Assembly: GCA_037386005.1 (NCBI GenBank)
Contig: JARRMM010000005.1
Span: 21,045 to 85,044 of the forward strand
DNA length: 64,000 bases
Source: Deinococcales bacterium
Lineage (GTDB): Bacteria > Deinococcota > Deinococci > Deinococcales > Trueperaceae
Direction: 5' to 3'
Under the pieces are notes generated by a model. The model was not told where the DNA came from and ran no database searches. It saw only the letters and a list, made by a program, of their open reading frames with translations. Positions 19,817-34,364 of this stretch are shown here, piece by piece. A program made the translations under genes and the position numbers. Each line of letters starts with the position of its first letter. The first letter of the stretch is position 1.

Positions 19817-21475
19817 TCACACGGCGACGCCGGCCGCCGCCCGGCCGGCGATGCGGCCGCTGAACAGGCACCCTCCGAGGAAGGTGCCCTCCAGGGAGCG
19901 GTAGCCGTGCATCCCGCCGCCTCCGAAGCCGGCGACCTCGCCGGCGGCGAACAGCCCGGGGAACGGATCGCCTCCGAGGCGCAGCACGCGGCCCTGGAGG
20001 TCGGTCTCGAGCCCACCCAGCGTCTTGCGCGTCAGGACCCGCAGACGGGCGGCGACGAGCGGTCCCGCCGCCGGATCGAGCAACCGGTGCGGCCGCGCGA
20101 CCCGGATCAGCCGGTCGCCCAGCGAGCGCCGGGCGTTGCGGATGGCCATGGCCTGGAAGTCCTTGCCGAAGCCGGTCACGAGCTGCTCGTCGCGGGCCTC
20201 CACCTCCGCCCGCACGACGTCCGGGTCGAGTCGGTCCTCGCCGGTCAGGGCGTTCATCGACCGGATCAGCCGGTCCAGCGTGGTGGCCTGGACGAAGTCC
20301 TCGCCGCGTTCGAGGAAGGCTCGGAGCGGCGGTTGCAGGCCGGCCAGGCGCCCCCGCACCAGGCGGTTGAGGCTTCTGCCCGTGAGATCCGGGTTCTGCT
20401 CACTCCCGGAGAGGGCGAACTCGCGCCGCAGGATGCGCCGGTCGAGCACGAACCAGGTGTAGGCGTGTCCGCGGCGCCCGAGGTGCTGGAGCGTGTCGAG
20501 GGTGTTGAAGCCCGGCAGGTACGGGGGCGGGAGGCGGCGACCGTCGGGGTCGAGCCACAGGCTGCTCGGTCCCGGCAGGATGCGGATGCCGTGCCCCGGC
20601 CACAGAGGGTCGTGGTTGCGCACGCCCTCGGTGTAGTGCCACATGCGGTCGGCGTGGATCAGCCGCCCGCCCGCGGCCGCCACGATCTGCTGCAGGCGGC
20701 CGTCGACGTGCGCCGGCACCCCGGTGAGCATCTCGCCCGGCGGGGCCCCCAGCCGCTCGGCGGGCCAGTTCCGGCGCACCAGATCGTGATCGCCGCCGAT
20801 GCCGCCCGACGCCACCACCACGGCGTCGGCGGCCAGCCGGAAGCTGCCCGCCACGGCACGCGAGGTGGGGCGGCCGCGCTCGGTGTCGTCGGGCTCGAGC
20901 ACGTCGCCCACCACCCCGCGGACCGCGCCACCGCTCACCTCCAGCTCGCGCACGCGGTGGCGGAAGCGGAGCTCCAAGCGACCGGCTCGTTCGTGCTCGC
21001 GCACGCGCCTGGCGAACGCCTCGACCAGGGCCGGGCCCGTGCCCCAGGCGATGTGGAAGCGGGGCACGCTGTTGCCGGGGCCGTCCGCACGTCCCATGCC
21101 GCGCTCGGCCCAACCCACGATGGGGAAGAAGCCGATCCCGTGTGCGCGCAGCCAGGCGCGCTTCTCGCCCGCAGCGAATGCCACGTACGCCTCGGCCCAG
21201 CGGCGGGGCCAGCGATCGTCGTCCCGGTCGAAGGCGGCTGTTGCGAGCCAATCGCGCCAGGCCAGCTCGACCGAGTCGCGGATACCCAGCCTGCGCTGCT
21301 GCGGCGTGTCCACCAGGAACAGACCGCCGAACGACCAGAAGGCCTGCCCGCCCAGGTTGGCTTCCGATTCCTGATCGAGCAGCAGTACCCGGCGGCCGGC
21401 GTCGGCCGCCTCGGCGGCGGCCACCAGGCCCGCCAGGCCTGCACCGACGACGATGACGTCCGCGTCTGGCGTCAC
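19817..21475 (-). CDS. FAD-binding dehydrogenase (COG3573-like)
   Basis: N-terminal Rossmann motif DVIVVGAGLAGLVAAAEAADAGRRVLLLDQE and C-terminal ..GLFAAGEVAGFGGGGMHGYRSLEGT.. GTG 21475 overlaps the upstream stop (GTGA). The track ORF extends spuriously to 22405. Confidence 0.85.
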   Translation of the reverse strand: MTPDADVIVVGAGLAGLVAAAEAADAGRRVLLLDQESEANLGGQAFWSFGGLFLVDTPQQRRLGIRDSVELAWRDWLATAAFDRDDDRWPRRWAEAYVAFAAGEKRAWLRAHGIGFFPIVGWAERGMGRADGPGNSVPRFHIAWGTGPALVEAFARRVREHERAGRLELRFRHRVRELEVSGGAVRGVVGDVLEPDDTERGRPTSRAVAGSFRLAADAVVVASGGIGGDHDLVRRNWPAERLGAPPGEMLTGVPAHVDGRLQQIVAAAGGRLIHADRMWHYTEGVRNHDPLWPGHGIRILPGPSSLWLDPDGRRLPPPYLPGFNTLDTLQHLGRRGHAYTWFVLDRRILRREFALSGSEQNPDLTGRSLNRLVRGRLAGLQPPLRAFLERGEDFVQATTLDRLIRSMNALTGEDRLDPDVVRAEVEARDEQLVTGFGKDFQAMAIRNARRSLGDRLIRVARPHRLLDPAAGPLVAARLRVLTRKTLGGLETDLQGRVLRLGGDPFPGLFAAGEVAGFGGGGMHGYRSLEGTFLGGCLFSGRIAGRAAAGVAV

Positions 21476-24400
21476 AGAGCAGCGGCGGACGCGCGCAGCA
21501 TGCCGTTGCGCACACGGGAGAAGGAGGCGATGAGGTCGGGCGAGGAGAGTTCGGACGCCAGAGCGTCCAAGAGGGTGCGCGTCCGTTCCAGGAGGACGCG
21601 GGCGTCGCCGTGGTGTCCGGTGCGCTCGTGAGCGCGTCCGGCCGCGCACCTGGCGCGTGCCTCGTCGAATGGGAAGCCACTCGCCTGCCACAGATCGCCC
21701 GCCCGCTGCCACAGGACCGCCGCCTCGGCGTCGTCGCCCGCCGCGTCGGCCACCGTGGCCCGGGCCGCTGCCGTCGTCGCACTTGCGTCCGCCGAGCCGT
21801 ACTGGCGCTCGGTCTCGTGGAGCACGCGAAGGCACACGTCGATCTGCCGTTCCCTCAGTGGGGACGTCGAGCGCCGTGCGAGCCAGCGCACGGCGGTCAG
21901 GAGGGCGCCGAGCACCTCCTCGGCGTGCGTGCCGCGGGGGCGGGTGAGATCGACGAGCTGGGCCGCGCTGCGGTCGGCCTCGTCGCTGCGGCCGAGGGCG
22001 GCGGCGGCACGCAGCCGGGCGCGCAGGTAGGGAGCCTGGAGCTGCTCCTCGCGCACCCGATCGAGCGCGCGGGACCCGGCGACGAGGAGGTCGTGCGCTG
22101 CGGCGGGCCGGCCCAGGTCGAGCTCCGTACCGGCCAGCTCCAGATCGATCCAGGCGCCCTTCGCATAGGCGTCGCTCCCGGTCGACCCCGGCACGACGGC
22201 ACGCAACCCCTGGAGCTGTCGCCGGGCCCAGCGCCAGCGCCCCCGCCGCCACTCCAAGCGGCCGAGGCTCAGGCGGGCGGAGAGCTCGAAGAGGTGGATC
22301 TGGTGGTCGCGGGCGTAGTCGACGAGCTCCGTCCAGCGCACGACCGCTTCCTGGATCCTGCCCAGCGCTTCGAGGAGGCCGGCCAGGTTGAACGCGGCGC
22401 GACACGCGTCGTGCGGCAGGCCCAGCTCCTGGGCCAGTCGATGACTCCGCTCGAGGTGGAGCAGGCCCTCGTCTCGCGTGGCGGCGCCCGCGCGCGCGAG
22501 CACGGTCCCGACGTTGTTCAGGGCGTGGGCCACCGCGTCCTGGGCTCCCAGGCGCTCCGACAGGGCCAGGGCCCGTTCACCCCAGACGAGGGCCTGGTCG
22601 TGGTCCGAGGCGAGCATGTGGAGCTGCGAGAGGGCGCTCTGGGCCCGGGCGAGCTCCGCCGTCTCCGGCCCGTCTCCGAGCACGGCCAGCGCCTCCTCGG
22701 TGGCGGCCAGGGCCCGGTCGAAGTCGCCTTCCTCGTGGAAGACCCTGCCCAGGGTCAGGAGGACGGCTCCGGCATCGTGGTGCCGACCGGCCGCCTCGAG
22801 GCCCTCCCGGGCCCGCGAGAGCGCACCTTCCGCTTCGCCGAGGTCGCCGCGGAGCCAGCGACACTCGCCCAGGTCACGGTGCAGTGTGGCGAGCGAGCTC
22901 GGGTCGGCATCGGGCGGCCAGGACGCCAGCGCCCGTTGGTAGTGATCGATGGCTTCGTCCAGGGCCGCGGATCGTCGGGCGCGGTCTCCCGCCCGCCGCT
23001 GGTGGATGGCCGCGCGCTCGGGCGCGTTCGCCAGCCTGAAGTGCAGCGCCAGCGCGGCGGGGTCGGCCTCCTCGCCGAGGAGGTCCTCCAGGGCCTGACC
23101 TACGGCCTCGTGCAGGTAGGCGCGCTCGCTCGCAGCGAGTTGGTCGTACAGGTAGCGCTGGATGAGGTCGTGGTGGAAGCGATAGCGCGAGACCAGCCCG
23201 CGGGGCGTTCGGCGGACGTCGATGCCGCCGACGAGCCGATGGTGGCGGTCGAGCACGTCTCCCAGCTCGCGGGCGATGGCGCGGGGCTCGCGTTCCAGCA
23301 CGCGCGCGACCACCTCCGTCGTGAACAGCTCCCCCTCCACGCTCGCCACGCGCAGGACCGACCGGGTGACCGGCTCCAGCCTGTCGATCCGCTCGCCGAG
23401 CACGCCCGTGAGACGTTCCGGTAGCACGTCCCAGCGGAGCGTTGCCGCCTCGGTCCAGCGGCCCGACGCGTCGCGCGCCAGATCACCGCGCTCCTGCAAG
23501 GCCCGGATCAGCTCGATGGTGAACAGGGGTTGCCCCGCCGTCCGGCGGAACAGGGCCGTGCGGAAGCGTTCCCCGAGGCGGTTGGGTTCGCTGTCCAGCC
23601 AGGCGTCCAGGAAGGCGCGGCCATCCGCGCGATCGAGGTCCAGCACGGCGTCGCTGCCGAGGCGCCCGATCTCGTGCACGACCGGTTCCAGCGGGTGTCG
23701 ACGCGGGTCGGCCAGCGACGGGGGGCCGGCAGGTCGATAGGCGCCCAGGACGAGGATGCGGTGCTCGCGCACGTTCCTCGCCAGTTGCAGGAGCAGGTCC
23801 GCGGAGCTCCGGTCCGTCCACTGGAGGTCGTCGAGGATCAGGAGGAGGGGCGTCTCGTCGGCGATGTGGGTCAGCACCCGCTCGAGCTCGGTGAGCAAGG
23901 CACCCTGACCGAGATACCCGTCACGATCCGGGAGCGTGGTGGCGCCGAGGGCCGGGTTCCGGACCCGGGACAGGGCGAGCTCGACCCCCGCGTCGAGCAG
24001 CCGGGCCTGGAGGGCGCGGCTGGCGACCACCGTGTCGAGCAGATGGGGACCGTGCTCGGCGATGGCTCGGCTCGCCCACGGCATCGCCTGCCACAAGCGA
24101 GCGGCACGCGTGGTCTCGAACGCGTCCGCCGTCGTCCTCAGCGGAACGCCGCCCGTGAGTTGCTCCAGGACCTCCCGGAACGGAAGGAAGGGGTCGTCGC
24201 CGCCGATGAAGGCGTTGCAGCTTCCGAGAGCGACCAGCAGGGTGGGCTCACGGAGCTGCGCGCGCTCGGCCGCGGCGCGGAGCAGCGCGGTCTTCCCCTG
24301 GCCGGCCTCGCCGCGCACGAGGACCGTGCGGCCGTGCCCGGATCGCGCCTCTTCGAAGGCTCCCAGCAACCGGTCGAGCTCGGCCTCTCGGCCGACCACC

Positions 24401-24786
24401 GGAGACTCCGACGGACCGGCTGGAGCGCCCTCGCTGCCGACCGAGTCGGTGGACGCGCCGGCTCCGGGAGTTCGCGAGGGGGCCGGGACGACGGTGGCGA
24501 GCCATGGGCGGTCAAGGTCGGGCCGGGGCTGGGCGGGAGGAGCGTCCGCCCAGCCGGTCCGCGCGAACCGTACGAACGCGGCGCGCTCCTCGGAGGGCAC
24601 GCCGACCGCGGTCGCCACGGCCTCGGCCACGCGCTTCGACGGCCGGCGTTCGTCCGCCTCGAGCTTCCGGATGGTGGCCGCCGAACAACCGACCTGCCGA
24701 GCGAGCTCCTTCTGGGTGAGGTCGAGCAGCTTGCGGCTCCGCTGGAGCCAGCGCCCGAACACCGGGTCGATGGGCGATGGGTTCAC
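21472..24786 (-). CDS. XRE-type HTH / P-loop NTPase (AAA_16-like) / TPR regulator, copy A (~1104 aa)
   Basis: HTH ..LDLTQKELARQVGCSAATIRKLEADERRPS.., Walker A GEAGQGKT, Walker B LLLILDDLQWTD, long TPR-like C-terminus. GTG 24786 lies 6 nt after AGGAAGG. Confidence 0.85.
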   Translation of the reverse strand: MNPSPIDPVFGRWLQRSRKLLDLTQKELARQVGCSAATIRKLEADERRPSKRVAEAVATAVGVPSEERAAFVRFARTGWADAPPAQPRPDLDRPWLATVVPAPSRTPGAGASTDSVGSEGAPAGPSESPVVGREAELDRLLGAFEEARSGHGRTVLVRGEAGQGKTALLRAAAERAQLREPTLLVALGSCNAFIGGDDPFLPFREVLEQLTGGVPLRTTADAFETTRAARLWQAMPWASRAIAEHGPHLLDTVVASRALQARLLDAGVELALSRVRNPALGATTLPDRDGYLGQGALLTELERVLTHIADETPLLLILDDLQWTDRSSADLLLQLARNVREHRILVLGAYRPAGPPSLADPRRHPLEPVVHEIGRLGSDAVLDLDRADGRAFLDAWLDSEPNRLGERFRTALFRRTAGQPLFTIELIRALQERGDLARDASGRWTEAATLRWDVLPERLTGVLGERIDRLEPVTRSVLRVASVEGELFTTEVVARVLEREPRAIARELGDVLDRHHRLVGGIDVRRTPRGLVSRYRFHHDLIQRYLYDQLAASERAYLHEAVGQALEDLLGEEADPAALALHFRLANAPERAAIHQRRAGDRARRSAALDEAIDHYQRALASWPPDADPSSLATLHRDLGECRWLRGDLGEAEGALSRAREGLEAAGRHHDAGAVLLTLGRVFHEEGDFDRALAATEEALAVLGDGPETAELARAQSALSQLHMLASDHDQALVWGERALALSERLGAQDAVAHALNNVGTVLARAGAATRDEGLLHLERSHRLAQELGLPHDACRAAFNLAGLLEALGRIQEAVVRWTELVDYARDHQIHLFELSARLSLGRLEWRRGRWRWARRQLQGLRAVVPGSTGSDAYAKGAWIDLELAGTELDLGRPAAAHDLLVAGSRALDRVREEQLQAPYLRARLRAAAALGRSDEADRSAAQLVDLTRPRGTHAEEVLGALLTAVRWLARRSTSPLRERQIDVCLRVLHETERQYGSADASATTAAARATVADAAGDDAEAAVLWQRAGDLWQASGFPFDEARARCAAGRAHERTGHHGDARVLLERTRTLLDALASELSSPDLIASFSRVRNGMLRASAAAL

Positions 24787-24830
24787 GCTACGACCTTCCT
24801 GCGATGCGCGGTTCGGGACGGTAATGCTCG

Positions 24831-24854
24831 CGATTGTAGCACCGCCTGTCACGC
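24831..24854 (-). promoter_or_regulatory. Extended -10 promoter (TGCTACAAT on minus strand) plus conserved block upstream of regulator A
   Basis: CGATTGTAGCACCGCCTGTCACGC is identical 24/24 to 30472-30495 upstream of regulator C. It sits ~45 nt upstream of the start codon. Confidence 0.6.
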
Positions 24855-24899
24855 GTGCCGTAACCGTTGCCGTTGCGGTCTGGCGATGCCGCCGCACAC

Positions 24900-25027
24900 C
24901 GGCCTGACGGGATCCATGGCGTCCGAGGGAGGTCGACGGCTTCGCGGCGCTGCTGGATCCAGCGCCCGAGCAGGGCGACCTCGTCGTGCCAGGTGCGGTC
25001 GCTCACGTTCCCCCGGAGTCGGTGCAT
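24900..25027 (-). pseudogene. 5' remnant of a further XRE-HTH/P-loop/TPR regulator gene (copy A')
   Basis: ORF 24788-25027 begins MHRLRGNVSDRTWHDEVALLGRWIQQRREAVDLPRTPW; compare copy A ..PVFGRWLQRSRKLLDLTQKEL. Similarity stops after ~35 codons. Its own TGCTACCAT box is at 25050-25058. Confidence 0.5.
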
Positions 25028-25269
25028 GCCTGCGTGCGTCTGTGGGGCGATGGTAGCACCGCATGCCGACCCTCCCGTCTTCCGTACCGTGACGGCGTGC
25101 GGGAGACGGCGATTCGCTGCCGGGCCGTATCGGCGTCGGCACGCTACCCGTCCCGCCGGCGGTCACGCCGTCGGTCACGCCCTCGGTCGCCATCGTCGTG
25201 ACCACGGCTGCCGCCCTCTGCGCTGCAATGGCGCCACGTACCGGACGGGGGCCGGACGGGGAGGTCGCC

Positions 25270-25491
25270 ATGATGAGTCTCATCTATGTGGAGACGATCG
25301 CGAAGGAGCGGTACTGGGAGATGGTGCGGCAGGCAGCCCGTCAGCGGGCGGCGCTCGCCCCCGTGCTGAGGCAGCGGCGCAAGGAGGCGCGGGCTCGCCT
25401 TGTCGCTCGGATCCGGCGCTTGCGCCGACGCTGGCGCCCGACCGCTGCCGAGCCACGCTCGCGAGCGGAACCGGCGTCCGATGGCCTGTGA
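25270..25491 (+). CDS. Small Arg-rich protein, paralog A (73 aa)
   Basis: MMSLIYVETIAKERYWEMVRQAARQRAALAPVLRQRRKEARARLVARIRRLRRRW..; SD GGGGAGG 5 nt upstream. Shares the core with 26781-27026 and 30589-30855. Confidence 0.6.
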   Translation: MMSLIYVETIAKERYWEMVRQAARQRAALAPVLRQRRKEARARLVARIRRLRRRWRPTAAEPRSRAEPASDGL

Positions 25492-25552
25492 CCGTCGCGT
25501 CCACTGCACATGGTGACGGGAGGGTTCGAGGGGGGCGTGGGCCGCGAAGCGT

Positions 25553-26622
25553 TCACGGCACGAACTGCGTGCCCTCGACCATGGACCGCACGGTGCGCGC
25601 GAACGTCGCTCGCAGCTCGCCCTCGGGAAGCTGCGCGGCGAGGCCGTCGAGCAGACGCTCGGCGCGCGCCGTGGCGCCCCTGGCCTCGCCGCCTCGTCCT
25701 GCGTCGAGCGCAGCTCCCGCGAGGACGCCGAGGGCACGCGCCTCGTCGAACGGGAAGCCGGTCGCCCACCAGCGCTCGGCGGCCTGCGTCAGGAGGTCCG
25801 GAGGTCCGCAGCATCGTCGGATCGCCCATCGGCGAGCCGGAGCACGCCGACCGCCTCGCGCAGCGACGCCCGTGTCTCGGGAGAGCCGACCTGTCGGTCG
25901 AAGCGTCGGAGGGCGTCCAGACGCACCCGCGCCAGCTTCCCGGAACCGGTCGGGGACCGGTGCGCGAGCCAGCGCACCGCGCTCAGGGCGGGGGCCACGA
26001 TCGCCATCGGTTGGGTCCCGTGGGGCGCGACGGCCTCCGCGATGGCGGCGGCGTCGTCACGTCGTCCCAGGGTCTCGAGCGCGGTGCCACGGATGACGCC
26101 GGCCTGCGAGGCTTCGTAGTGCAGGCCGAGCGCATCGGCTGTGCGGTAGGCCTCCGTCAGGAGCGACAGGCCCTCCGGCGGGCGGTGGGGTCCGGTCACG
26201 ACCAGCTTGGCCGCGATGGCGATCTGGCTGAGGAGGAGGAGAGCCGCCCCCGCCGCCTGCTTGTCGCTCACGCTTCCGAGCGTGTCGGCCGCCTGCTGGG
26301 GGGGTAGCCCTTCCTCTTCGTCGTTGCCGGACAACCACAGGCACTCGCCCAGCTCCAGCAGAAGCGCGTCCGACGTTGCCGGATCCGTGCCCCCGGCATC
26401 GCCGCTTCTGGGCCCGGCTCGTCGGGCTGCGCCGGTCCAGCGCGCCGCCGCCTCGTCGTGGCGTGCGGCCGGGCTCACGACCGATCCGGCACGGAGCCGC
26501 TCGAGCTCGCCGCCTCGGGGTGGCGTGGGGACCGGCGTCCAGGAGCGTAGTTGGGCTGTCGCCGCAGGTGAGGGAGGGGTGGCTCGTGGGGCGCCGTCGG
26601 GGGCCTCCCGTGCGGCTCCCAC
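25553..26622 (-). pseudogene. 3' remnant of an XRE-HTH/P-loop/TPR regulator (copy B): TPR half only, frameshifted
   Basis: ..DALLLELGECLWLSGN.. aligns to ..LATLHRDLGECRWLRGD.. of copy A (~aa 690). No HTH or ATPase part. ORF stops at 25789; after removing one 8-nt repeat copy it continues ..DDAADLLTQAAERWWATGFPFDEARA.. to TGA at 25553. Confidence 0.7.
25792..25808. repeat. 8-bp tandem duplication (GAGGTCCG x2) causing the frameshift in remnant B
   Basis: GAGGTCCG at 25793-25800 and 25801-25808. In-silico removal of one copy restores the frame and the family-conserved W-x-x-G-(F/Y)-P-(F/M)-(D/H)-EARA motif. Confidence 0.8.
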
Positions 26623-26780
26623 AACACCGCTGTCCGCCGCTGTCCCCCCGCTGTGTCGCTCCCTGGGTCGCCACGGGGGTCGGTCGCCGTGCCGCCGAGC
26701 GTGCCGGTCTCCGTGACCCGAGGCTCCTTCGTTCGCGTTGGAATGCCGTCATCGCAAGGAGAGAGCGAAGGAGGCCGAGG

Positions 26781-27026
26781 ATGACGGATCCGTGGATGGC
26801 CAGGAAGCAGGCGAAGGAACACCACCAGGACCTCGTGCGGCAGGCGGGCCGCGAGCGCCGGTTGGAGTCGGCCGCCGCCAAGGCAGTCGAGCGCGGCTTC
26901 TGGGCTCGCCTCTTCGGGCTGCGCCGCAGCGTCGGCGCAGCAGACCGCAGCACGCGATCGACCCCCCAAGCTACTTCGGTGCGCTCGTCGCCTGCCCGCC
27001 TCGACGTGGCGGAGCACGACCTCTAG
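26781..27026 (+). CDS. Small Arg-rich protein, paralog B (81 aa)
   Basis: MTDPWMARKQAKEHHQDLVRQAGRERRLESAAAKAVERGFWARLFGLRRS..; SD AAGGAGG upstream; conserved leader. Confidence 0.55.
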   Translation: MTDPWMARKQAKEHHQDLVRQAGRERRLESAAAKAVERGFWARLFGLRRSVGAADRSTRSTPQATSVRSSPARLDVAEHDL

Positions 27027-27111
27027 CACGCGACATCTAGCACAGGACGACACGTCGGCCACGCACGGGGCGCTCACCGGGGCGCGAGACCGGCCTGCCG
27101 CTCAGCGGCGG

Positions 27112-30100
27112 CTAGAAGAGCAGCCCCTCCTGCATCTCGAGCATCCGACGGCGCTCGGCCGCGAAGGACGAGGCCATCTCCCCGTCCTGAAGCTGCGCTT
27201 CCAGGTCTGCCAGGAGCGCATCGGCCCGGTCGAGCGCCTCGTTGCCCTCGCCGTTCGAGCCCAACTGCCGGAGAAGGTGCGCTGCCGCACAGCGGGCCCT
27301 CGCCTCGTGCATGGGGTAGCCGTGCTCGGCCCAGAGCTCTGCGGCGAGCACGTAGTTACCGGCTGCCGCTGCGCCCGTGCCATCCGCCTCGGCCAGCGCG
27401 CCACGGGCTGCCTCCAGGGCTGCCCGGGCATGCACCGACCCGTACTGCCGCTCGGTGCGTTCGAGGATGCGGACGCAGAGCTCGACGCGGCGGCGATGGT
27501 CGTCGGCGGAATGGTGGGCGAGCCAGTGTGCCGCGGTCATCACGGGGTCGATCACCGTGTCCGGGTAGCTGGTCCTGTCGCCCACGGCGTCGACCAGGTC
27601 GGCCGCGAGCCGATCCGCCGCTGCGGTGTCGTCCCTGGCGGCGGCCCCTCGCAGCAGCTCACGCATGCCTTGAGAGCGGAACCTCAGCGCCATCCCGGGC
27701 GGCATCGCCGTTGCGATCGTGTTCAACCACGGCTGGGCCTCGGCCACGCGACCGAGGTCCAGGTCTGCCATCGCTACGGCGAAGGTGTGCTGGTTGAAGG
27801 TGCCGGCCTCCGCACGCAGCGCGAGTAGGGCCGCGACAGCCGCCGACCACCGGCACCGGCTCCAGTCGAGTCGGAACAAGCGAGTCCGGCCGAACCGCTC
27901 GAACGCCTTGAGCTGGTGGCGACGGGAGTGATCGATGAGCTGGCGGAACGGCTCGGCTGCCTCCTCGAGCCGGCCGTAGCTCTCGAGGGCCGCGCCGAGG
28001 AACGAAAGGGCGGATCCCACCTCGACGAAGGCGCCGATGCGTTCCGCGACCTCCACCGCCTCCTGGATCCTCGCAAGGGCGTCATCGTGCCGATCGCTCC
28101 GGGTACAGGCCAACACCCAACCTAGGACCATGAGCCCCTGGGCCCGGTGCCGGTCGCTCCCCAGCCGCTCGGCCACGGCGAGGCCACGCTCCGCCACTGC
28201 GAGGGCCCGGTCGTCATGCTCGTGGAGGTCGCTCTCGGCGATCCTGGTCAGAAGAAAGGCGAGCTCGGGTGACTCGGGGCCCTTCTCGAGCAACGGCAAC
28301 CACGCGTGGAAGGCGTCGAGCATACGCAGGTTCTCCGGTGGCCGGTTCACGACGATGCGCATGATCTCGGCCCGGATGGCCCCGGAGGAGCGCCGGTCAC
28401 CGAGCCGCTCGTACTCGGCCAACGACTTCTCGAGGATGCGCTCTGCGTCGATTGGGTCACCGTGGAGGCTCAGACACTGCGCAAGGTCGTAGAGCAACTC
28501 CGCACGTCCTTCGGTGTCGGCTTCGGGCCAGGCGTCGAGGGCGCTTCGGTAGGAATGAATGGCGTCGGTCAGGGCGAAGGCGCTGCGGGCGCGGTCGCCG
28601 GCCTTCCGCAGGTGGGGTGCCGCGAGCGCCGTGGCGTGGGCCTCGGTGTAGTGATAGGCGAGGGCGAGCGGATCGGCGTCCTCCCCCATGAGGGCTTCGG
28701 TGGCGGCCGCGACCTTCTCGTGCAGGTAGCTTCGTTCCGCTGCTCCCACGTGATCGAGCACGTAGCGTTGGATAAGGTTGTGGCGGAAGCGGTAGCGGGA
28801 GACGCGCTGTCCGCCGGGGAGGCGGGAGACGTCCGCGAGCTCGACGAGGCGGTGCTCTTGCTCGAGCTCGTTGCTCGATACCCGGGCGACGTCCAGCGGG
28901 TCGAGGTCCAGCACGCGCGCCACGACCTCGACGGTGAAGGTCTCGCCTTCGATGCCGGCGGCGGTCAGGACCTGACGGGCGGACGGGTCGAGCCGTGTGA
29001 TGCGCTCGCCGAGCGCACCGGCGACGCGTGCCGGCAGGGCGTCCCAACGCAACTCGGGCCCTTCGATCCAGCGCCCCTCGGCGTCCCGGATCAGGTCACC
29101 GCGCTGCTGCATGGCGCGGAGCAGCTCGATGGTGAAGAGGGGCTGCCCGCCGGTCTGGCGCAGAAGCGCGTCCCGGAAGGCAGGCCCGAGGTCGTTGGGT
29201 TCGGTGTCGAGCCAGGCGTCGAGGAAGGCACGGGTGTCGGCACGGTCCAGGTCGACACGGATGTCCCCGAACTGGCGTGTGAGGCCGTGGATGACCCGCT
29301 GCATCACGGGAGAGGCGCTCCCGTCGGAAGGGGACACCTCGCCGGTGCGGCAGGCGCCGATGATGAGAATGCGCGTCGTTGGGCTGGTGCGGGCGAGCTG
29401 CAGCAAGAGCTCGAGCGAGTGCTCGTCGGCCCATTGGAGGTCGTCGAGAAGCAGCAGGAGTGGCGCGTGTGTGGCGACGTGGGCGAGGACGTCGACGGCT
29501 TCCGAGCGTAGCGCCGCGGCGTTCCGCTGACCGACCGGGCTCGCCGTGGCGCGGGTGTCGGGCGTGGTGAGGCGGTCGGGCAGTGCGATGCCTGCTTCGG
29601 TGAGGCGAGAGCGCAGGGGCGCGAGGGGCAGGAGGGTGTCGAGGAGGTCGGGTCCGTGGTCGAGCACACTGGCCAGGCCGCGGGGCAGGAACGCCCGGAG
29701 GCGGGCGTAGCGGCTCGCGTCGAAGGGGGTCCGGTCGGCTCCCGATGGAACGTGGCCGGTGAGTTGAGCGAAGATCTCCCGGAACGGGGCGAAGGGATCG
29801 CCGACGCCGGTGTAGGCGCTGCAGGTTCCGACGACGGCGAGGAGCTCGGGGTTGGCGGCCTGCGCCCTACCGGCGAACGCCTTCATCAGGCTGGTCTTGC
29901 CCTGACCGGCCTCGCCGGCGATCAGCATCACGCGCCCGCGTCCGTTCAGCGCGTCGTTCAGGGCGCCTTGCAGGCGGTCGAGCTCGGCGGAGCGCGCCAG
30001 GAAGAGGGGAGAAGCCGGGGCCTCGTCGTCGAGGTCGGACTCGGGACGCTCGACGGGCCTCGCGGGGGCAGTGGCGGTGCTCGGCGCGGTGACGTCGCCG

Positions 30101-30426
30101 TCTGGACGCGCCGGCCCGGCTTCCGTTGCCGACTCCACGAGCCAGGGCCGCTCCAGGTCGGGCCGTCGGGTGTCCTGGGCGTCGTCCGCACCGCCGGCAC
30201 GGGCGAAGCGCACGAAGGCGTCGTGCTCGTTGTCGGGCACACCGGTGGCGCGGGCGATCGCGCCGGCGACGGGCTTCGAGGGCCGACGTACGCCGCTCTC
30301 GAGCTTGCGGACGGTGTGGAGGGAACAGCCGACGAGGCGCGCGAGCTCCTTCTGGGTCAGGTCGAGCGCCTTGCGGCGCCTCCGAAGCCACGGCCCGAAC
30401 AGGGCGTCCTCGGTGGATGTGTCCAC
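27112..30426 (-). CDS. XRE-type HTH / P-loop NTPase / TPR regulator, copy C (~1104 aa)
   Basis: ..LDLTQKELARLVGCSLHTVRKLESGVRRPS.., Walker A GEAGQGKT, Walker B LLLLLDDLQWAD, TPR-like C-terminus. Collinear with copy A. GTG 30426 chosen by alignment to A; the track uses TTG 30432. Confidence 0.85.
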   Translation of the reverse strand: MDTSTEDALFGPWLRRRRKALDLTQKELARLVGCSLHTVRKLESGVRRPSKPVAGAIARATGVPDNEHDAFVRFARAGGADDAQDTRRPDLERPWLVESATEAGPARPDGDVTAPSTATAPARPVERPESDLDDEAPASPLFLARSAELDRLQGALNDALNGRGRVMLIAGEAGQGKTSLMKAFAGRAQAANPELLAVVGTCSAYTGVGDPFAPFREIFAQLTGHVPSGADRTPFDASRYARLRAFLPRGLASVLDHGPDLLDTLLPLAPLRSRLTEAGIALPDRLTTPDTRATASPVGQRNAAALRSEAVDVLAHVATHAPLLLLLDDLQWADEHSLELLLQLARTSPTTRILIIGACRTGEVSPSDGSASPVMQRVIHGLTRQFGDIRVDLDRADTRAFLDAWLDTEPNDLGPAFRDALLRQTGGQPLFTIELLRAMQQRGDLIRDAEGRWIEGPELRWDALPARVAGALGERITRLDPSARQVLTAAGIEGETFTVEVVARVLDLDPLDVARVSSNELEQEHRLVELADVSRLPGGQRVSRYRFRHNLIQRYVLDHVGAAERSYLHEKVAAATEALMGEDADPLALAYHYTEAHATALAAPHLRKAGDRARSAFALTDAIHSYRSALDAWPEADTEGRAELLYDLAQCLSLHGDPIDAERILEKSLAEYERLGDRRSSGAIRAEIMRIVVNRPPENLRMLDAFHAWLPLLEKGPESPELAFLLTRIAESDLHEHDDRALAVAERGLAVAERLGSDRHRAQGLMVLGWVLACTRSDRHDDALARIQEAVEVAERIGAFVEVGSALSFLGAALESYGRLEEAAEPFRQLIDHSRRHQLKAFERFGRTRLFRLDWSRCRWSAAVAALLALRAEAGTFNQHTFAVAMADLDLGRVAEAQPWLNTIATAMPPGMALRFRSQGMRELLRGAAARDDTAAADRLAADLVDAVGDRTSYPDTVIDPVMTAAHWLAHHSADDHRRRVELCVRILERTERQYGSVHARAALEAARGALAEADGTGAAAAGNYVLAAELWAEHGYPMHEARARCAAAHLLRQLGSNGEGNEALDRADALLADLEAQLQDGEMASSFAAERRRMLEMQEGLLF

Positions 30427-30471
30427 GACCAACCTTCCCCCAGGTTCCTCCGTTGCCTACGGCGTCAGGGA

Positions 30472-30495
30472 CGATTGTAGCACCGCCTGTCACGC
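30472..30495 (-). promoter_or_regulatory. Extended -10 promoter (TGCTACAAT) plus conserved block upstream of regulator C
   Basis: Identical 24-mer to 24831-24854, although the flanking coding sequences are clearly diverged. Confidence 0.6.
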
Positions 30496-30554
30496 TCGGT
30501 GTCCCGGTTGCGGTCGCGGTCTCCGTGACCACGCGGTCCCTCGTTCACGCTGAA

Positions 30555-30564
30555 ATGGCGCCAT
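30555..30564. promoter_or_regulatory. Perfect palindrome ATGGCGCCAT in the leader of small ORF C
   Basis: Lies 25 nt upstream of ATG 30589. Equivalent positions are ATGGCGCCAC (25228-25237, paralog A) and ATGCCGTCAT (26743-26752, paralog B). Confidence 0.45.
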
Positions 30565-30588
30565 CTGAAGGAGAGAGGGAGGCCGATC

Positions 30589-30855
30589 ATGAACGACTAC
30601 ACGGCGCAGCGTGCGATGCGGGGACGGTACGAGGATCTGGCCCGGCAGGCGAACCGGGAGCGGCGGGCCACGAGCTCGGTGGCGAGCGTCGGCGGGCGCA
30701 GCCTGCTCGCCAGGTTCTTCGGGCGGTTGTTCGGCCGGCGCGACGGCGCGCCTCGCGAAGTCGTGGAGCCTGCGGCGAGGACGGCGCCGCAGAGAGAGCC
30801 GGAGTCCGCGCGCGGGCCGGCCCGCAGCTGGGATGCGATGCGGAGTGACGTCTAG
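30589..30855 (+). CDS. Small Arg-rich protein, paralog C (88 aa)
   Basis: MNDYTAQRAMRGRYEDLARQANRERRATSSVASVGGRSLLARFFGRLFGRRDG..; SD GGAGAGAGGGAGG upstream. Confidence 0.6.
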   Translation: MNDYTAQRAMRGRYEDLARQANRERRATSSVASVGGRSLLARFFGRLFGRRDGAPREVVEPAARTAPQREPESARGPARSWDAMRSDV

Positions 30856-31087
30856 CTTGAACGGGGGCGCGCCGGACGTGCCCCGATGGGGCGCCCGCCC
30901 GCCGCGAACGCCGGCCGGCGGCGCGCCGGTGCGGAGGCTGCGGCGGAAGGAACCGAGGGCTCGCTGGGTGACTCGGATCCGCCGCCTGAGGGCACGATTG
31001 ACGCACCAACGGTCACGCCGTCGGTCGTCCGCTCGGGACGGGCGCCGACCTGCTACGGGGTCGCTTGTCGGCGCGAAGAGGGGGCCG

Positions 31088-31121
31088 CACCCGCACGGGC
31101 GCGGCCCCCTCGATCCTGTGC
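31088..31121. terminator. Strong stem-loop between convergent small-ORF region and the DUF1059 gene
   Basis: 11-bp perfect stem GAGGGGGCCGC / GCGGCCCCCTC with a 12-nt loop. No clear U-tract on either strand. Confidence 0.4.
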
Positions 31122-31146
31122 AACGCGTCAGGCGGAACGAGATGCT

Positions 31147-31323
31147 TCAGGCAGAACGAACCGAAGCGAGGACCTTGTCGACCATCGCGTCGTCGACCTC
31201 CTCCACCCCGTGGACCTCTCGGGCGTGCTGCGCAACGATCTCGAGGAGCTCCTGCTCGTCCTCCGCGCGCACCTCCGCGTCGCAATCGAAGCCCACGTCC
31301 CGACATCTGAGCAACTTGGCCAT
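31147..31323 (-). CDS. DUF1059 family small protein (58 aa; below ORF-track length cutoff)
   Basis: Hand translation: MAKLLRCRDVGFDCDAEVRAEDEQELLEIVAQHAREVHGVEEVDDAMVDKVLASVRSA. The C-x-D-x-G-x-D-C and H-A-x-x-x-H-G pattern is typical of DUF1059. SD GGGAGGA; 21 nt downstream of the SARP gene stop. Confidence 0.75.
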   Translation of the reverse strand: MAKLLRCRDVGFDCDAEVRAEDEQELLEIVAQHAREVHGVEEVDDAMVDKVLASVRSA

Positions 31324-31344
31324 GCTGACGTCCTCCCTTCCCGG

Positions 31345-33015
31345 CTAGCCTGGACCATCCCCCGTCACAGCAGCGTCACGCCCCTGCGCTCCGGTCCCAT
31401 CGCGCAGCAGTCTGCGCGAGGCTTCGACCAGGGGCTCCCAACCCACGGCGTCTGCCCGCCGAAGAGCCGCACGGGCGCACGTCTCCGCCCGAGCCCGCCG
31501 TCCGGCGCCGAGCTCGGCACGCGCGAGGGTGAGTAACGACTCGATCTGGAGCCGCTTGTCTCCCGTCTCCGTAGCGATGGTGAAGGCAGTGGCAGCCGCC
31601 TGGGTCGGCGTCAGGAGGCCGGCCCGGTGCCGTTCTGGCAGCTGCAGACGCGCCTGCGCCAGGCTATCCAGGACGTACCCCTCGAGCAGGCGATCGCGCG
31701 CCAGCCGGGCCAGGGCGAGGGCGCGCTCGAGCAGGCGGACGCCGTCTCGGGCGCGCCCCTCGACCGCCATCTGCAGCCCCAGGTTGTTGAGGACGTTGGC
31801 CTCCGTCATTCGTTCGCCGGTGGCGCGGGCGAGCGCCAGGGCCCGCAGGTAGTGCCCCGTCGCCTGCCGGCCTCGCCCCAGCGCGTCCTCGACCAGAGCC
31901 AGGTTGAGGCGCATGCGGAGCTCGGCGAAGGCGTCGCTCTGCTCCAGGTGCTTCAGCGCCTCGCCCCAGCGGGATCGTGCCCCGTCGAGGTCGCCGCGCG
32001 CCCAGCTGAGCGAACCGCGGACGAAGTGGGCCTCGGCCACGGTCGAGGAGGTCTCCTGGCCTTGAGCGAGCAGCTCGAGGGCCCGTGTGGCGCGGCGTTC
32101 GGCGGCCGCGTTGCGTCCCAGCCGATGCTCCAGCCAGGCGAGGTCTACCAGCGCGCGTGCAAGCTCGTGGGGCTCGGTCAACGCGGCCACGACCGATTGC
32201 AGCAACGACGCGCCCTCCTCCATCCAGCCGCCCGTTTCCGCCGAGTGAGCCAGCGGACCGCCCATGGCCGTGAGTGACGGCAGCTCGGTCTGAAGGGCCC
32301 CGGCGGCCGCACGCGCCGCCCCCCGTGCCAGGGCCTGGGTCGCCGCCGTCGGGGCGGCCCCCACCTCCTCCGCCAACGCGCGACGCAAGCGCGCGTAGGC
32401 ACGCAGCGCCGCTCCCGGCTCGCCGCGGGCGAGCTCGAGCTCCATCAAGGTGCGGCAGGCGTCCTCCGACCAGGGGCGCAGGCGCACCAGCTTCACCGCC
32501 GCGAGGACGGCTGCGGCGAGGTCTCCTTCGGAGGTCGCTGACTCGATGCTGGCTGTCAGCGCTGCGGCCTGCCGCTCCGTTACGTCGCTGCGGCTCGCCT
32601 CGAGCCACGACTCCAGCTCCGGCAGGTCGGAGGCGTCCAGGCTGCCGAGCAGGCCCGCTGGGGCGATGGCGGCGAGGTCGTCGGAGTCCATGTCCCGGAC
32701 GTCGGCCCAGAGGTCCTCGCGCAAGGCCACGCCATCGCGGTCCAGCACCGGAGCGTGCTGGTCGATCCGCAGGAGCGCCTGCCGGAGGTTCGCGCGCGCC
32801 CGGGACTCGGGCCTTTCGGGCCACAAGAGCCCCGCGAGCCGCTCCCTGGGCGTCGGTCCTTCGAGCGCCAGGAAGGCCAGGATGAGGGAGGCCACCCGCG
32901 CTGGTCGCCAACGGCCCGTCGGTCCTACGAGCTCGGCGGTCTCGCCCAGGAGATGGAGCTGCCACGGGTTCCGGACGGCGCCGTCTGTGCCCGGACGCGG
33001 CGTGTAGGCGCTCAT
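31345..33015 (-). CDS. SARP-type (OmpR-like wHTH + BTAD) regulator with C-terminal TPR repeats
   Basis: ..WQLHLLGETAELVG..RVASLILAFLALEGPTPRERLAGLLWPERPESRARANLRQALLRI.. (wHTH), BTAD ..ACRTLMELELARGEPGAALRAYARLRRALAEEVG.., then TPR-like repeats. ATG 33015 follows GGAGGGGG. Confidence 0.8.
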   Translation of the reverse strand: MSAYTPRPGTDGAVRNPWQLHLLGETAELVGPTGRWRPARVASLILAFLALEGPTPRERLAGLLWPERPESRARANLRQALLRIDQHAPVLDRDGVALREDLWADVRDMDSDDLAAIAPAGLLGSLDASDLPELESWLEASRSDVTERQAAALTASIESATSEGDLAAAVLAAVKLVRLRPWSEDACRTLMELELARGEPGAALRAYARLRRALAEEVGAAPTAATQALARGAARAAAGALQTELPSLTAMGGPLAHSAETGGWMEEGASLLQSVVAALTEPHELARALVDLAWLEHRLGRNAAAERRATRALELLAQGQETSSTVAEAHFVRGSLSWARGDLDGARSRWGEALKHLEQSDAFAELRMRLNLALVEDALGRGRQATGHYLRALALARATGERMTEANVLNNLGLQMAVEGRARDGVRLLERALALARLARDRLLEGYVLDSLAQARLQLPERHRAGLLTPTQAAATAFTIATETGDKRLQIESLLTLARAELGAGRRARAETCARAALRRADAVGWEPLVEASRRLLRDGTGAQGRDAAVTGDGPG

Positions 33016-33076
33016 GCGCATACCCCCTCCGTCACCGGTCGGTGACGTTCGTTGCGCGACGCTGACTGGGAAGGCG

Positions 33077-33085
33077 ATTCTAGCA
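33077..33085 (-). promoter_or_regulatory. Extended -10 element TGCTAGAAT upstream of the SARP gene
   Basis: Plus-strand ATTCTAGCA lies ~60 nt upstream of the start. It resembles the TGCTACAAT boxes of regulators A and C. Confidence 0.45.
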
Positions 33086-33242
33086 CTCGTTCCGGGAGGC
33101 TCCGGTGGCGCCCCGTGAGTTCGAGCGGGCTCCCTCCGCGCAGGTGCTGTACACTCGCCCAACGATCCAACGAGTGTCCCAGCCCGCCCCGTCCGTCCGT
33201 CGTCCCCACGTGGCGCCGGGGACCCGTGACGGGAGGTGCGGC

Positions 33243-34304
33243 ATGGCAGGAGGATCGGCCCTGGGATCGACGACGGCGTCCTGGGCGGCATACCGGCCCA
33301 GCGCCCTGGACCGGCTGGTGGACGCCGTGGCGCGCCTGCCCGGCTGGCCGCCGATGGCGTACCTGGTGTTGGGGGCCGGCGGGGTGGTGCTGCTCCATGC
33401 CGTCCGGGTGGTGGACGGGTCGCTCGAGGCGGGCGCCATCTCGGCGCCGCTTGTGAGCTTCGGGACCTGGGGTCCGCTGGTGCTGGCGGCGAAGGCGCTC
33501 ATGCGCCGGACGGCACGGCACAGCGTCGATGGCTTCCGGCCCGCCCTGCGCGGCGACGACCGCGACTGCGACGCGATCCGCTACCGGCTGATGACCCAGC
33601 CGCTGTTCGGGACCTGGCTGGGCGGACTCGGCTTCATCGGCTTCGCGGCCCCTGCGACCTTCCTGAGCGAGCACTACGTGCGGACCACCGGCCTGTTCAC
33701 CTCGCCGGCGGCCGTCGCGCTGCAGCTGCCGCTGCTAGTGTTCTACCTGTGGGTGACGGGTGCAGCGGGCTACGGCATCGTCCACACGCTCGTCACCGTC
33801 CACGGCGTCTACGTGCGCCGGGCGCGCGTGGACGTCCTGCGACCGGAGCCGCTCTACGCGCTCTCCCGGCTCACCAGCTTCTCGGCGATGGCGGTGCTGC
33901 TGGTGCAGTACAACTGGATCGCCGGCAACCCCGCCATCCTGCGTTCACCGGCAGCGCTCGCCAACATCCTCACCTGGGACGCGCTCGCCCTCGTCCTGTT
34001 CGTGTGGCCGCTGTGGGGCGCCCACCGCATGCTGGCGGACGCCAAGAGCGCGCTGCTGGGGGAGGTGGGCATGCGGGTCGAGAGGGCCGGCGCCGAGCTG
34101 CGCCGCGCCGTCGACGAGGACGCCACCGCTCGTATGGCCCCCCTCAAGGACGCCCTGCTCGGCCTGGAGTCGTCCTTGCGGGTGGTGGAGCGCGCGTCGA
34201 CGTGGCCCTGGCAGCCGGAGACGCCGCGACTGGTCGTCTCCGCCGTGCTCCTTCCACTCGGGGCCTGGCTGCTGCAGCAGGTGCTCGACCGCGTGTTGCT
34301 CTAG
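33243..34304 (+). CDS. Hypothetical polytopic membrane protein
   Basis: About 6 hydrophobic segments plus a C-terminal coiled-coil-like region; SD GGGAGG before ATG 33243. Divergent from the SARP gene. No family recognised. Confidence 0.55.
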   Translation: MAGGSALGSTTASWAAYRPSALDRLVDAVARLPGWPPMAYLVLGAGGVVLLHAVRVVDGSLEAGAISAPLVSFGTWGPLVLAAKALMRRTARHSVDGFRPALRGDDRDCDAIRYRLMTQPLFGTWLGGLGFIGFAAPATFLSEHYVRTTGLFTSPAAVALQLPLLVFYLWVTGAAGYGIVHTLVTVHGVYVRRARVDVLRPEPLYALSRLTSFSAMAVLLVQYNWIAGNPAILRSPAALANILTWDALALVLFVWPLWGAHRMLADAKSALLGEVGMRVERAGAELRRAVDEDATARMAPLKDALLGLESSLRVVERASTWPWQPETPRLVVSAVLLPLGAWLLQQVLDRVLL

Positions 34305-34364
34305 GCGGGCGCGACGCGGAGCGGACCGTGGGGGCGCCGCGGCCACCCCCGCTGCCCGCCCCCG

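Follow-up and report, generated by a model that had tools for sequence, protein, structure and literature searches.

A candidate STAND regulator, operator-like array and divergent small-protein gene in a partly decayed island of a Deinococcales genome

Transcription factors of the STAND class (NLR-like; signal transduction ATPases that have numerous domains) are abundant in bacteria, yet to our knowledge the signals and targets of few of them, MalT, GutR and AfsR, have been worked out. This article concerns an island within a 64,000-nucleotide stretch of Deinococcales DNA (GenBank assembly GCA_037386005.1, contig JARRMM010000005.1, positions 21,045 to 85,044), hereafter the window, in whose own numbering positions are given. 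In the island two large genes for putative STAND regulators, here termed giants, occur together with small open reading frames (ORFs) and control regions bearing a phased array of short repeats. Relatives are cited by label, loci as L### (e.g. L002) and proteins as P#### (e.g. P0013), with positions in the numbering of the locus.

AfsR, a large SARP of STAND type from Streptomyces, with afsS, and MalT of E. coli or PH0952 of Pyrococcus, are closer analogues of this arrangement than the RRNPP family. In the first of these afsS lies downstream of afsR, whereas the small gene of the window is divergent from its giant; the window small protein, an Arg/Ala-rich helix, we also take to be unrelated in sequence to AfsS. 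In the AfsR system as in the window, a STAND regulator, composed of a DNA-binding domain, a nucleotide-binding oligomerisation domain (NOD) and TPR, adjoins a non-enzymatic small gene of about 60-90 codons, whose promoter has direct-repeat boxes, spaced by about one helical turn, that extend over its -35 region. AfsR activates afsS (PMC10936776). A SARP N-terminus (L083, L088) and boxes spaced 11/12/11 bp, the last of them 8 bp from an extended -10, are further likenesses confined to the Chloroflexota relatives. The window giants, by contrast, carry an XRE helix-turn-helix (HTH) with no match to BTAD, their NOD matches AAA_16, and their array has five units at a 12-bp period as against two at 11 bp. 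AfsR matches them only via the TPR profile and is not among the top 50 fold matches.

MalT acts through several repeated MalT boxes, to which it binds cooperatively. The window giants share with PH0952 and MalT a layout in which NOD, arm and TPR-like sensor follow one another, although MalT has a C-terminal LuxR-type DNA-binding domain where the giants have an N-terminal XRE HTH, its NOD has no detectable sequence similarity to theirs, and its inducer is maltotriose. STAND proteins are activated by inducer-dependent, ATP-dependent multimerisation, and by analogy with the MalT clade the giants would be expected to be released from autoinhibition by an inducer and then to multimerise with ATP (PMC6468293). 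MalT is in addition controlled by protein partners such as MalY (PMC10427625). GutR of Bacillus subtilis, cited as a non-immune STAND regulator (PMC13581612), resembles the giants, on a comparison of descriptions, in its domain order and its adjacent target. It differs in its small-molecule inducer, glucitol, and is not known to have a small-protein partner or an array of five phased units. The order in GutR is an N-terminal HTH, a P-loop NOD and a C-terminal TPR, and the protein controls an adjacent operon.

The preliminary description of this DNA had turned for precedent to the RRNPP regulators (PlcR/PapR, NprR/NprX, Rgg/SHP), to which Rap/Phr also belongs and which likewise combine an N-terminal XRE HTH with TPR beside a small ORF; the Rap TPR is among the profile matches of the giants to solved structures. 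In the giants, however, some 450 aa of NOD and linker intervene between HTH and TPR, and the small ORFs, of 70-100 aa, have no signal sequence or hydrophobic segment and are conserved N-terminally, whereas an RRNPP pro-peptide is secreted and its C-terminal mature peptide is taken up again as the signal. RRNPP is not the closest analogue because its NTPase-free HTH-TPR architecture and its exported peptide are both absent here; furthermore, RRNPP systems belong to Bacillota and the present module to Deinococcota and Chloroflexota. Database and literature searches found the pairing of giant and small ORF in no curated family or paper, which agrees with the first impression that the module matched no described system.

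The island and its giant proteins

The island comprises two intact giants (big1 and big2), two giant remnants (of copies X and Y), three intact small ORFs (smA, smB and smC), the fragment of a further small ORF and a SARP gene (Table 1). We put at about 0.55 the probability that it is a tandemly amplified, partly decayed regulatory module of giant, operator-like array and divergent small gene, in which the STAND regulator would read the phased array, autoregulate and activate the small gene by a logic like that of AfsR and afsS. On the simplest reading, four or five tandem units, each with a giant and a small ORF pointing away from one another, would later have been eroded by deletion. To judge by its distribution, with giant, intergenic region and small ORF laid out alike in at least five further Deinococcota loci, the pairing is a recurrent module across genomes and not only a by-product of local duplication.

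Much of the layout first described is sound. The two minus-strand giants of about 1104 aa (21472-24786 and 27112-30426) are intact and have the GC signature of coding DNA, with GC3 of 0.87-0.89, and the 3' and 5' remnants are recovered by tblastn, by DNA repeats and as peptide. Three of the four giant copies do face a plus-strand ORF of 73-88 aa with a strong Shine-Dalgarno sequence: the 5' remnant stands opposite smA, the 3' remnant opposite smB and big2 opposite smC, and no small ORF is opposite big1. The 5' remnant is 75% identical in DNA over 51 nt to the 5' ends of big1 and big2 and encodes a peptide ...LLGRWIQQRREAVDL. In the 3' remnant, residues 949-1099 of big1 are matched by tblastn in two frames at 25565-26025, and DNA repeats stretch the homology to about 26455.

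Over their full length big1 and big2 are 44% identical, and by domain the identity falls from the HTH (0.61) through the NOD (0.41-0.67) to the TPR (0.33-0.38); big1 is 57% identical to the L002 giant. The XRE HTH, Walker motifs and TPR-like C-terminus attributed to them at the outset are confirmed by Pfam and by motif. HTH_31/HTH_3, AAA_16 and TPR_12 all exceed the Pfam cut-offs in both proteins, the HTH_31 and HTH_3 matches lying at residues 10-71 and AAA_16 scoring E = 2e-21 to 2e-23, and only NB-ARC, which had been suggested beside AAA_16, found no match. Both carry the Walker A motif GEAGQGKT and the Walker B motif LLL(I/L)LDDLQW.

An AlphaFold2 (AF2) model of big2 (mean pLDDT, the per-residue confidence score, 86; above 90 in the HTH) has an HTH, a disordered linker, an alpha/beta P-loop domain, a helical and winged-helix region, and a TPR domain of about 13 TPR-like helical-hairpin repeats at residues 562-1103. 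Its best fold match is PH0952 (PDB 6mfv, E = 1e-9, 822 aligned columns). Profile matches among solved structures reach only those that contain TPR, including AfsR, the PH0952 sensors and Rap; for the NOD, sequence and profile searches of PDB found no solved relative. The giants' TPR domain falls in the TPR_12 class, which binds peptides or helices, and is comparable with LGN, kinesin light chain, Rap and the TPR of AfsR. A P-loop NOD, a C-terminal repeat sensor and a DNA-binding effector, as required of a STAND regulator, are all predicted, and the best reading of sequence and model is that the giants are MalT/PH0952-type STAND transcription factors. Antiviral STAND proteins (Avs, bNACHT) were considered and set aside, as PADLOC gave only HTH-level matches and no Avs or NLR model, and the effector is an HTH.

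The giants belong to a large and modular family, named in the sources merely "AAA family ATPase" or similar, in which the core is AAA_16, the N-terminus may be an XRE HTH, SARP, Ser/Thr kinase, LuxR or cyclase, and the C-terminal sensor is TPR or SBP_bac_5. In some relatives the oligopeptide-binding SBP_bac_5 replaces TPR behind the XRE-AAA_16 core (P0246, P0256, P0271, P0276, P0281, P0297), and others have kinase, cyclase or LuxR. The family thus appears to swap both its effector and its sensor modules. A second assembly of the same species (GCA_037386155.1) has big2 split into genes of 903 and 184 aa (L085 683-3941), either by strain-level pseudogenisation or by an assembly error in a repeated region; the contigs of the sister assemblies also break within the island. 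A 2.7-kb contig of the same MAG (metagenome-assembled genome) holds P0013 (locus tag P8Y02_15870), a 46-aa protein whose first 43 residues are identical to smA; it represents a variant from another strain or else a copy of the repeated island duplicated in assembly.

The phased array between giant and small gene

The complete control region, that between big2 and smC, contains the extended -10 of the giant (the reverse complement of TGCTACAAT, at 30474-30482). A five-unit array with a 12-bp period lies at 30476-30536, its terminal unit being an inverted GTGACC (30525-30530); after a gap of 20 nt come a -10-like TGAAAT (30551-30556) and the Shine-Dalgarno sequence GGAGAGAGGGAGG. The grammar is one of four direct 12-bp units, with the consensus nGT[C/A/G][A/G/C]CGCYCGC, followed by a single terminal unit; this GTGACC reads GGTCAC on the opposite strand and is therefore inverted. 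The extended -10 of the giant shares bases with the first unit.

The other copies preserve parts of this design. At big1 the extended -10 block (reverse complement of TGCTACAAT) lies at 24832-24844 and four phased 12-bp units run from 24835 (phased-array matches at 24835/24836), before the region is broken off at about 24882 by a deletion junction, where homology to big2 stops (about 24881) and the 5' remnant is joined on. Copy X has a -10 block GATGGTAGCAC at about 25048, a five-unit array at 25150-25209 with its terminal GTGACC at 25198-25203, and a -10-like TGCAAT at 25224-25229 followed by a Shine-Dalgarno sequence. In copy Y the phased units end in GTGACC at 26713-26718, and a -10-like TGGAAT (26739-26744) and a Shine-Dalgarno sequence follow.

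In 8 of 8 Deinococcota regions the distance from GTGACC to the -10-like TG[ACG]A[AC]T is exactly 20 nt, and because this spacing is fixed the small-gene promoter is tied to the array. Four phased GTnnC units occur 10 times in the 8 Deinococcota control regions and never in 2000 shuffles; on both strands of the 64-kb window they are found only in three regions upstream of giants. In the 260 nt 5' of 13 XRE-type giants, paired TGT[AC]NC units reach about 200 times the density seen elsewhere in those loci. Unrelated loci of XRE-type giants, whose divergent partners vary, have the same grammar, TGTATCC being repeated directly about every 12 bp and an inverted GGATACC often coming after it; in the Chloroflexota XRE-type loci the units read TGTATCC...TGTATCC...GGATACC. 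SARP-type relatives have a different box, GGGACG, in the 11/12/11-bp spacing given above, which is the published SARP geometry (PMC10936776). As the TGTAnC/GTCAC grammar holds whatever the divergent partner, the array is best assigned to the XRE-type giants. A G-K-N-A-C-G core shared by the Deinococcota and Chloroflexota arrays and read by SARP was entertained and rejected, the boxes differing by giant type; the SARP of the island is likewise not favoured as reader of the array, for no SARP accompanies the other XRE-type giants.

The small-helix genes, their partners and competing explanations

The three small ORFs are mutually homologous, and two of them, smB and smC, are already entered at NCBI as hypothetical proteins. 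In all three a GGAGG Shine-Dalgarno sequence precedes the start by 6-9 nt; a Shine-Dalgarno sequence at the proper distance and an ATG are kept in all nine Deinococcota small-ORF copies. None of the three has a Pfam match even at E <= 10, or an NCBIfam family, and the WhiJ-type pairing of XRE with DUF397 known from Streptomyces was dismissed, as the small ORFs, having no Pfam match at all, are not DUF397. The absence of a signal peptide, first judged by eye, is upheld, there being no hydrophobic segment (maximum 15-aa hydropathy <=1.1). Arginine richness, by contrast, does not distinguish them, at 16-25% compared with 18.9 +/- 7.7% in arbitrary window ORFs of 60-110 aa. AF2 predicts one long N-terminal helix (residues 3-49 in smC) and a disordered tail.

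Unfiltered tblastn with the small ORFs gave hundreds of spurious Arg/Ala-rich matches in high-GC DNA, and six-frame ORFs were therefore searched with a hidden Markov model (HMM). The family HMM (E = 9e-15 to 2e-17 for smA, smB and smC) includes the window copies in the model; as an independent check, an HMM restricted to the three copies of the window recovers the small ORF of L002 (E = 1.5e-6). Candidates picked by eye in L004 and L080 did not score with the full family HMM and were dropped. The window copies fit a superfamily, 'ARERHxDLLREAEQxRL', with the motif A-R-E-R/H-Y/H-x-D-L-x-R-E/Q-A-x-x-x-R-L. A word-indexed database search finds 21 of the proteins, whereas exhaustive HMMER finds 444 representative clusters, almost all of 55-100 aa with the match starting at residue 1, and none with a name or a Pfam family. 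Three motifs are common along the length of the protein, including a C-terminal (G/A)(A/T)PR.

Among the window paralogues the sequences are saturated for dN/dS (the ratio of non-synonymous to synonymous substitution), and the L094 orthologue of smC was used instead. Here dN/dS is 0.37 over codons 1-27 and about 1 beyond, compared with 0.11-0.25 in the flanking genes, and the first 14 codons are almost invariant, synonymous sites included. In Chloroflexota copies dN/dS is 0.15-0.27. The small ORF is, on this evidence of homology and selection, a real protein family. Its functional part is proposed to be the conserved N-terminal alpha-helix of roughly 27-45 aa, and the Arg-rich tail appears to be neutral high-GC read-through.

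The preliminary description had asked whether small ORFs of this family recur divergent to such giants. Divergent pairing does recur in other genomes, in Deinococcota (L002, L013, L101, L102) and in Chloroflexota (L008, L083, L088, L096), but the wider superfamily is mostly unlinked to giants. Among Deinococcota XRE-type giants, a small-helix ORF diverges from big2, the two remnants and the giants of the four Deinococcota loci; in L100 one is near but not divergent, and none stands beside the giants of L001 (which has a SCO4226-like gene instead), L003 or, by HMM, L004. Many giants of the family face other genes, SCO4226-like proteins for example. Homologous NOD-TPR giants of Chloroflexota, in which SARP and kinase replace the XRE HTH, face the small-ORF family too. 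The Anaerolineae subfamilies (P0008, P0020, L008), and P0171 as well, diverge from SARP-kinase-AAA_16-TPR giants and have MFS genes after them. For the Promineifilaceae subfamily the distance to a giant of that type is 2.5 kb, the L007 copy stands third in an operon divergent from an XRE-type giant, and P0019 and P0174 are unlinked to any giant. In all, 7 of the 10 subfamilies whose context is known have an AAA_16-TPR giant no more than 3 kb away, compared with a few percent by chance on a rough estimate. A metagenome scan by tight alignment recovered 33 loci with generic DLLREAEQxRL members, whose neighbours are diverse and often other regulators; giant homology was seen in 2 of about 15 with enough flank. 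The forward and reverse context tests combined thus indicate a link between giant and small ORF that is real but confined to certain lineages.

Several observations on partners stand apart from this. A PF14026 'SCO4226-like nickel-responsive' protein of about 85 aa is encoded at L001 5513-5881, L026 5278-5541, L029 5632-5898 and L032 5555-5893, all four divergent from the giant, and at L100 483-734, and replaces the helix ORF opposite XRE-type AAA_16-TPR giants in four unrelated loci, which hints that XRE-type giants often control small-protein genes. In Chloroflexota a conserved operon at L083 6001-9588 and L088 5159-8755 has the small ORF as its first gene, then a 157-aa ...DGHHR... protein, an MFS gene, a FAD_binding_3 monooxygenase and a rhodanese, and the L083 and L088 small proteins have two conserved Cys, one of them C-terminal. 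Generic superfamily members are often beside regulators of the GntR, ArsR/MarR-type and HTH_67 families (left flanks of L106, L114 and L117; L105, L125), and at L135 655-4176 a small-helix ORF lies directly 3' of a cyclase-NB-ARC-TPR-LuxR STAND giant.

Gene order in relatives bears on how the island arose. L101 (Trueperaceae) has a single-copy layout, with AMP-binding, SARP and DUF1059 genes in one direction, a 72-aa ORF converging on them, and the giant and FAD genes divergent from that ORF. L002 has the big1 orthologue, the FAD gene downstream and the divergent small ORF, with the SARP side deleted. In L094 both flanks are syntenic and the giant is absent, whilst a second locus in the same genome, L102, has a giant with a divergent small ORF. 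From these layouts it appears that giants are gained, amplified and lost quickly whilst the control region and small ORF persist. We infer an ancestral order in which the FAD gene followed the giant, the giant and the small ORF diverged from the promoter, and SARP and DUF1059 converged on the small ORF, as L101 still has it. The lineage of the window would then have amplified giant, array and small ORF four or five times, deletions destroying two giants and one small ORF. A chimaeric remnant in L002, at 5977-6325, joins a promoter block of the giant type and 72 aa of XRE HTH, in frame, to a SARP N-terminus (...WRLRLLGETAELTGPSTRWRPP...), which suggests recombination between the giant and the SARP gene beside it.

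In the proposed mechanism the giant, with its XRE HTH as output, AAA_16 NOD for oligomerisation and sensor of about 13 TPR repeats, would be transcribed from the extended -10 promoter. An unspecified signal at the TPR domain would release autoinhibition, and ATP-dependent oligomerisation, at which the multi-site phasing of the array hints indirectly, would set several HTH domains onto the phased array. The giant would in this way autoregulate its own promoter, which overlaps the first array unit, and switch on an activator-dependent small-gene promoter; the ancestral copy would also drive the FAD oxidoreductase gene transcribed together with it. As for the small helical protein, it would serve as output and perhaps take part in feedback.

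A number of points weigh against this scheme. The source genome is a MAG of an uncultured organism. The promoter hexamers are weak, a consensus sigma-70 scan found no two-hexamer promoter, and XRE HTH domains usually bind palindromes as dimers and not direct-repeat arrays. Several close relatives of big2 among the giants have genes of other kinds opposite them (L001, L003, L100). In the window's own copies protein-level constraint is seen only in the first 27 codons or so. Finally, L094 retains a giant-start stub, the whole control region and the smC orthologue in the absence of the giant; control of its array would either act in trans from the paralogous giant of L102 or be unneeded.

The alternative that survives best, although we consider it doubtful, is that the small helical protein is an intracellular ligand or anti-activator of the giant's TPR sensor, RRNPP-like or MalY/MalT-like, closing a feedback loop. 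The small ORFs adjoin homologous NOD-TPR bodies despite the exchange of XRE for SARP and kinase, which a link to the NOD-TPR body explains more easily than a shared operator does. The peptide- or helix-binding type of the TPR, the oligopeptide-binding SBP_bac_5 that stands in its place in some relatives, and the fast evolution of both small ORF and TPR domain point the same way, as does the predicted shape of the small protein, since a single long helix with a disordered tail is typical of TPR ligands. MalY acting on MalT is a precedent for a protein inhibitor of a STAND transcription factor (PMC10427625). Several findings nevertheless weaken the case that the TPR domain senses the small protein, as the preliminary description would have had it. 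No fusion of giant and small helix occurs among 120 giants, the mirror-tree correlation for co-divergence of the two rests on a single pair, L094 kept its small ORF after the adjacent giant was lost, giants with other partners are common, and the generic superfamily is largely unlinked, with giants near only 2 of about 15 loci. We know of no bacterial STAND transcription factor that is gated by a dedicated, adjacently encoded micro-protein. A combined scheme, again improbable, would make the small protein both output and cytoplasmic ligand or antagonist, its N-terminal helix docking in the TPR solenoid to form a self-contained, NLR-like feedback switch, with the pairing outlasting exchanges of the DNA-binding domain (XRE, SARP-kinase) and paralogous pairs diversifying against cross-talk.

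Somewhat less likely still is adjacency without function, in which array and promoter would serve only giant autoregulation and the giant's own operon, the small ORF being an unrelated neighbour, from a widespread family of small proteins, carried along by synteny and local duplication. Such a view would accommodate L094, with its small ORF and control region but no giant, the many superfamily clusters (of 444) in other contexts, and the same type of array beside XRE-type giants whatever gene they face. It does not readily account for the invariant spacing from array to hexamer in 8/8 loci, for the recurrence of the pairing in two phyla with different DNA-binding modules, or for the proximity to giants of 7/10 subfamilies of known context. 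Least probable is that the small ORFs of this lineage are not functional proteins, the conserved part being regulatory DNA or 5' leader and the frame a high-GC accident, for although dN/dS is about 1 past codon 27 and uninformative among the paralogues, arginine content equals background, the first 14 codons are nearly invariant even at synonymous sites and spurious ORFs are plentiful in a window of about 72% GC, this is opposed by the Shine-Dalgarno sequence and ATG retained in all nine Deinococcota copies, by significant profile homology to Chloroflexota proteins under clear purifying selection and by the three shared motifs reaching to the C-terminus. An RNA element in the leader was also rejected, as Rfam gave nothing, no RNA structure is conserved and the leader folds less than shuffled sequences do, the last two points weighing against the leader reading as well.

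Neighbouring genes and significance

Table 1. Features of the island, in window coordinates
Feature	Position	Strand	Evidence or remark
FAD_binding_2 oxidoreductase, 552 aa	19817..21475	-	Pfam FAD_binding_2, E = 1.4e-85
big1, XRE HTH + AAA_16 NOD + TPR, 1104 aa	21472..24786	-	Pfam, translation; L002 giant is the orthologue
big1 control region, left half	24787..24881		82% identical to 30472-30522
5' remnant (HTH start) of decayed giant copy X	24900..25027	-	translation, DNA repeat
copy X control region	25028..25269		Tandem Repeats Finder (TRF) period-12 repeat 25150-25188, score 57
smA, small-helix ORF, 73 aa	25270..25491	+	family HMM E = 8.6e-15; gene called on same-species contig
3' remnant of decayed giant copy Y, frameshifted, with internal deletions	25565..26622	-	tblastn, DNA repeats
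copy Y control region, right half, joined to 3' remnant	26623..26780		78% identical to 30517-30580
smB, small-helix ORF, 81 aa, locus tag P8Y02_03735	26781..27026	+	family HMM E = 4.1e-15
big2, XRE HTH + AAA_16 NOD + TPR, 1104 aa	27112..30426	-	Pfam, AF2 model
big2/smC control region, complete, divergent	30427..30588		82% identical to L094 orthologous region
smC, small-helix ORF, 88 aa, locus tag P8Y02_03720	30589..30855	+	family HMM, AF2, dN/dS
fragment of fourth small ORF, other module copy	30905..30997	+	tblastn to smA 24-54, 68% identity, E = 2e-7; DNA repeat
DUF1059 small gene, 58 aa, 3' of SARP, converges on smC	31147..31323	-	Pfam E = 9e-21
stand-alone SARP regulator, BTAD + TPR (TPR_12), 556 aa	31345..33015	-	Pfam

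The start of the FAD_binding_2 gene overlaps the stop of big1 by 4 nt (gene calls, same-species contig), so that it follows big1 within one operon; the order of giant then FAD gene is kept in L002 and L101. On the other side, the SARP/BTAD-TPR regulator is present as first described, but elsewhere it forms no part of the module, being a syntenic neighbour in this lineage; no SARP adjoins the giants in L001-L080. The SARP gene is conserved as a pair with DUF1059 in L094 and L101, a DUF1059 gene of 58-60 aa always following it (window 31147-33015, L094 8389-10256, L101 1595-3468), and the two constitute another conserved pairing of a regulator with a small protein.

Upstream of the SARP gene (33016-33100) there is a giant-type promoter block, GGCGATTCTAGCACTCG, at 33076, one of only three in the window (24832, 30473, 33076). 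The array unit recurs 5' of SARP, at 33031-33046, as the perfect inverted repeat GTCACC-GGTC-GGTGAC, and the palindrome GTCACC-N4-GGTGAC was discounted as not significant alone, with 2 in the window against about 1 expected by our own estimate. Compared with the syntenic L094, the window carries an additional 1.3 kb (33037-34347) where the SARP gene adjoins the AMP-binding gene. This insertion encodes a 353-aa ORF (33243-34304, plus strand) that by eye resembles a multi-pass membrane protein and has no Pfam match.

The module of giant, array and small gene is, on these comparisons, real, conserved and undescribed, whilst its kind, in which a STAND transcription factor is encoded beside the gene of a small protein, is familiar. 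The operator grammar of 12-bp phasing, inverted terminal unit and 20-nt offset, as deduced from the control regions, is newly defined. The locus provides a compact and testable system with an operator grammar, a predicted target promoter and a candidate micro-protein output or partner, and it offers natural variants in amplified, single-copy and giant-deleted forms. If the small gene is merely a target, the module would be a second design of the AfsR-afsS type, outside the actinomycetes. Were the small helix to gate the sensor, it would represent a new mode of control for an NLR-type switch, and a superfamily whose unannotated clusters, in Chloroflexota, Deinococcota and their relatives, number at least 444 would gain its first function.

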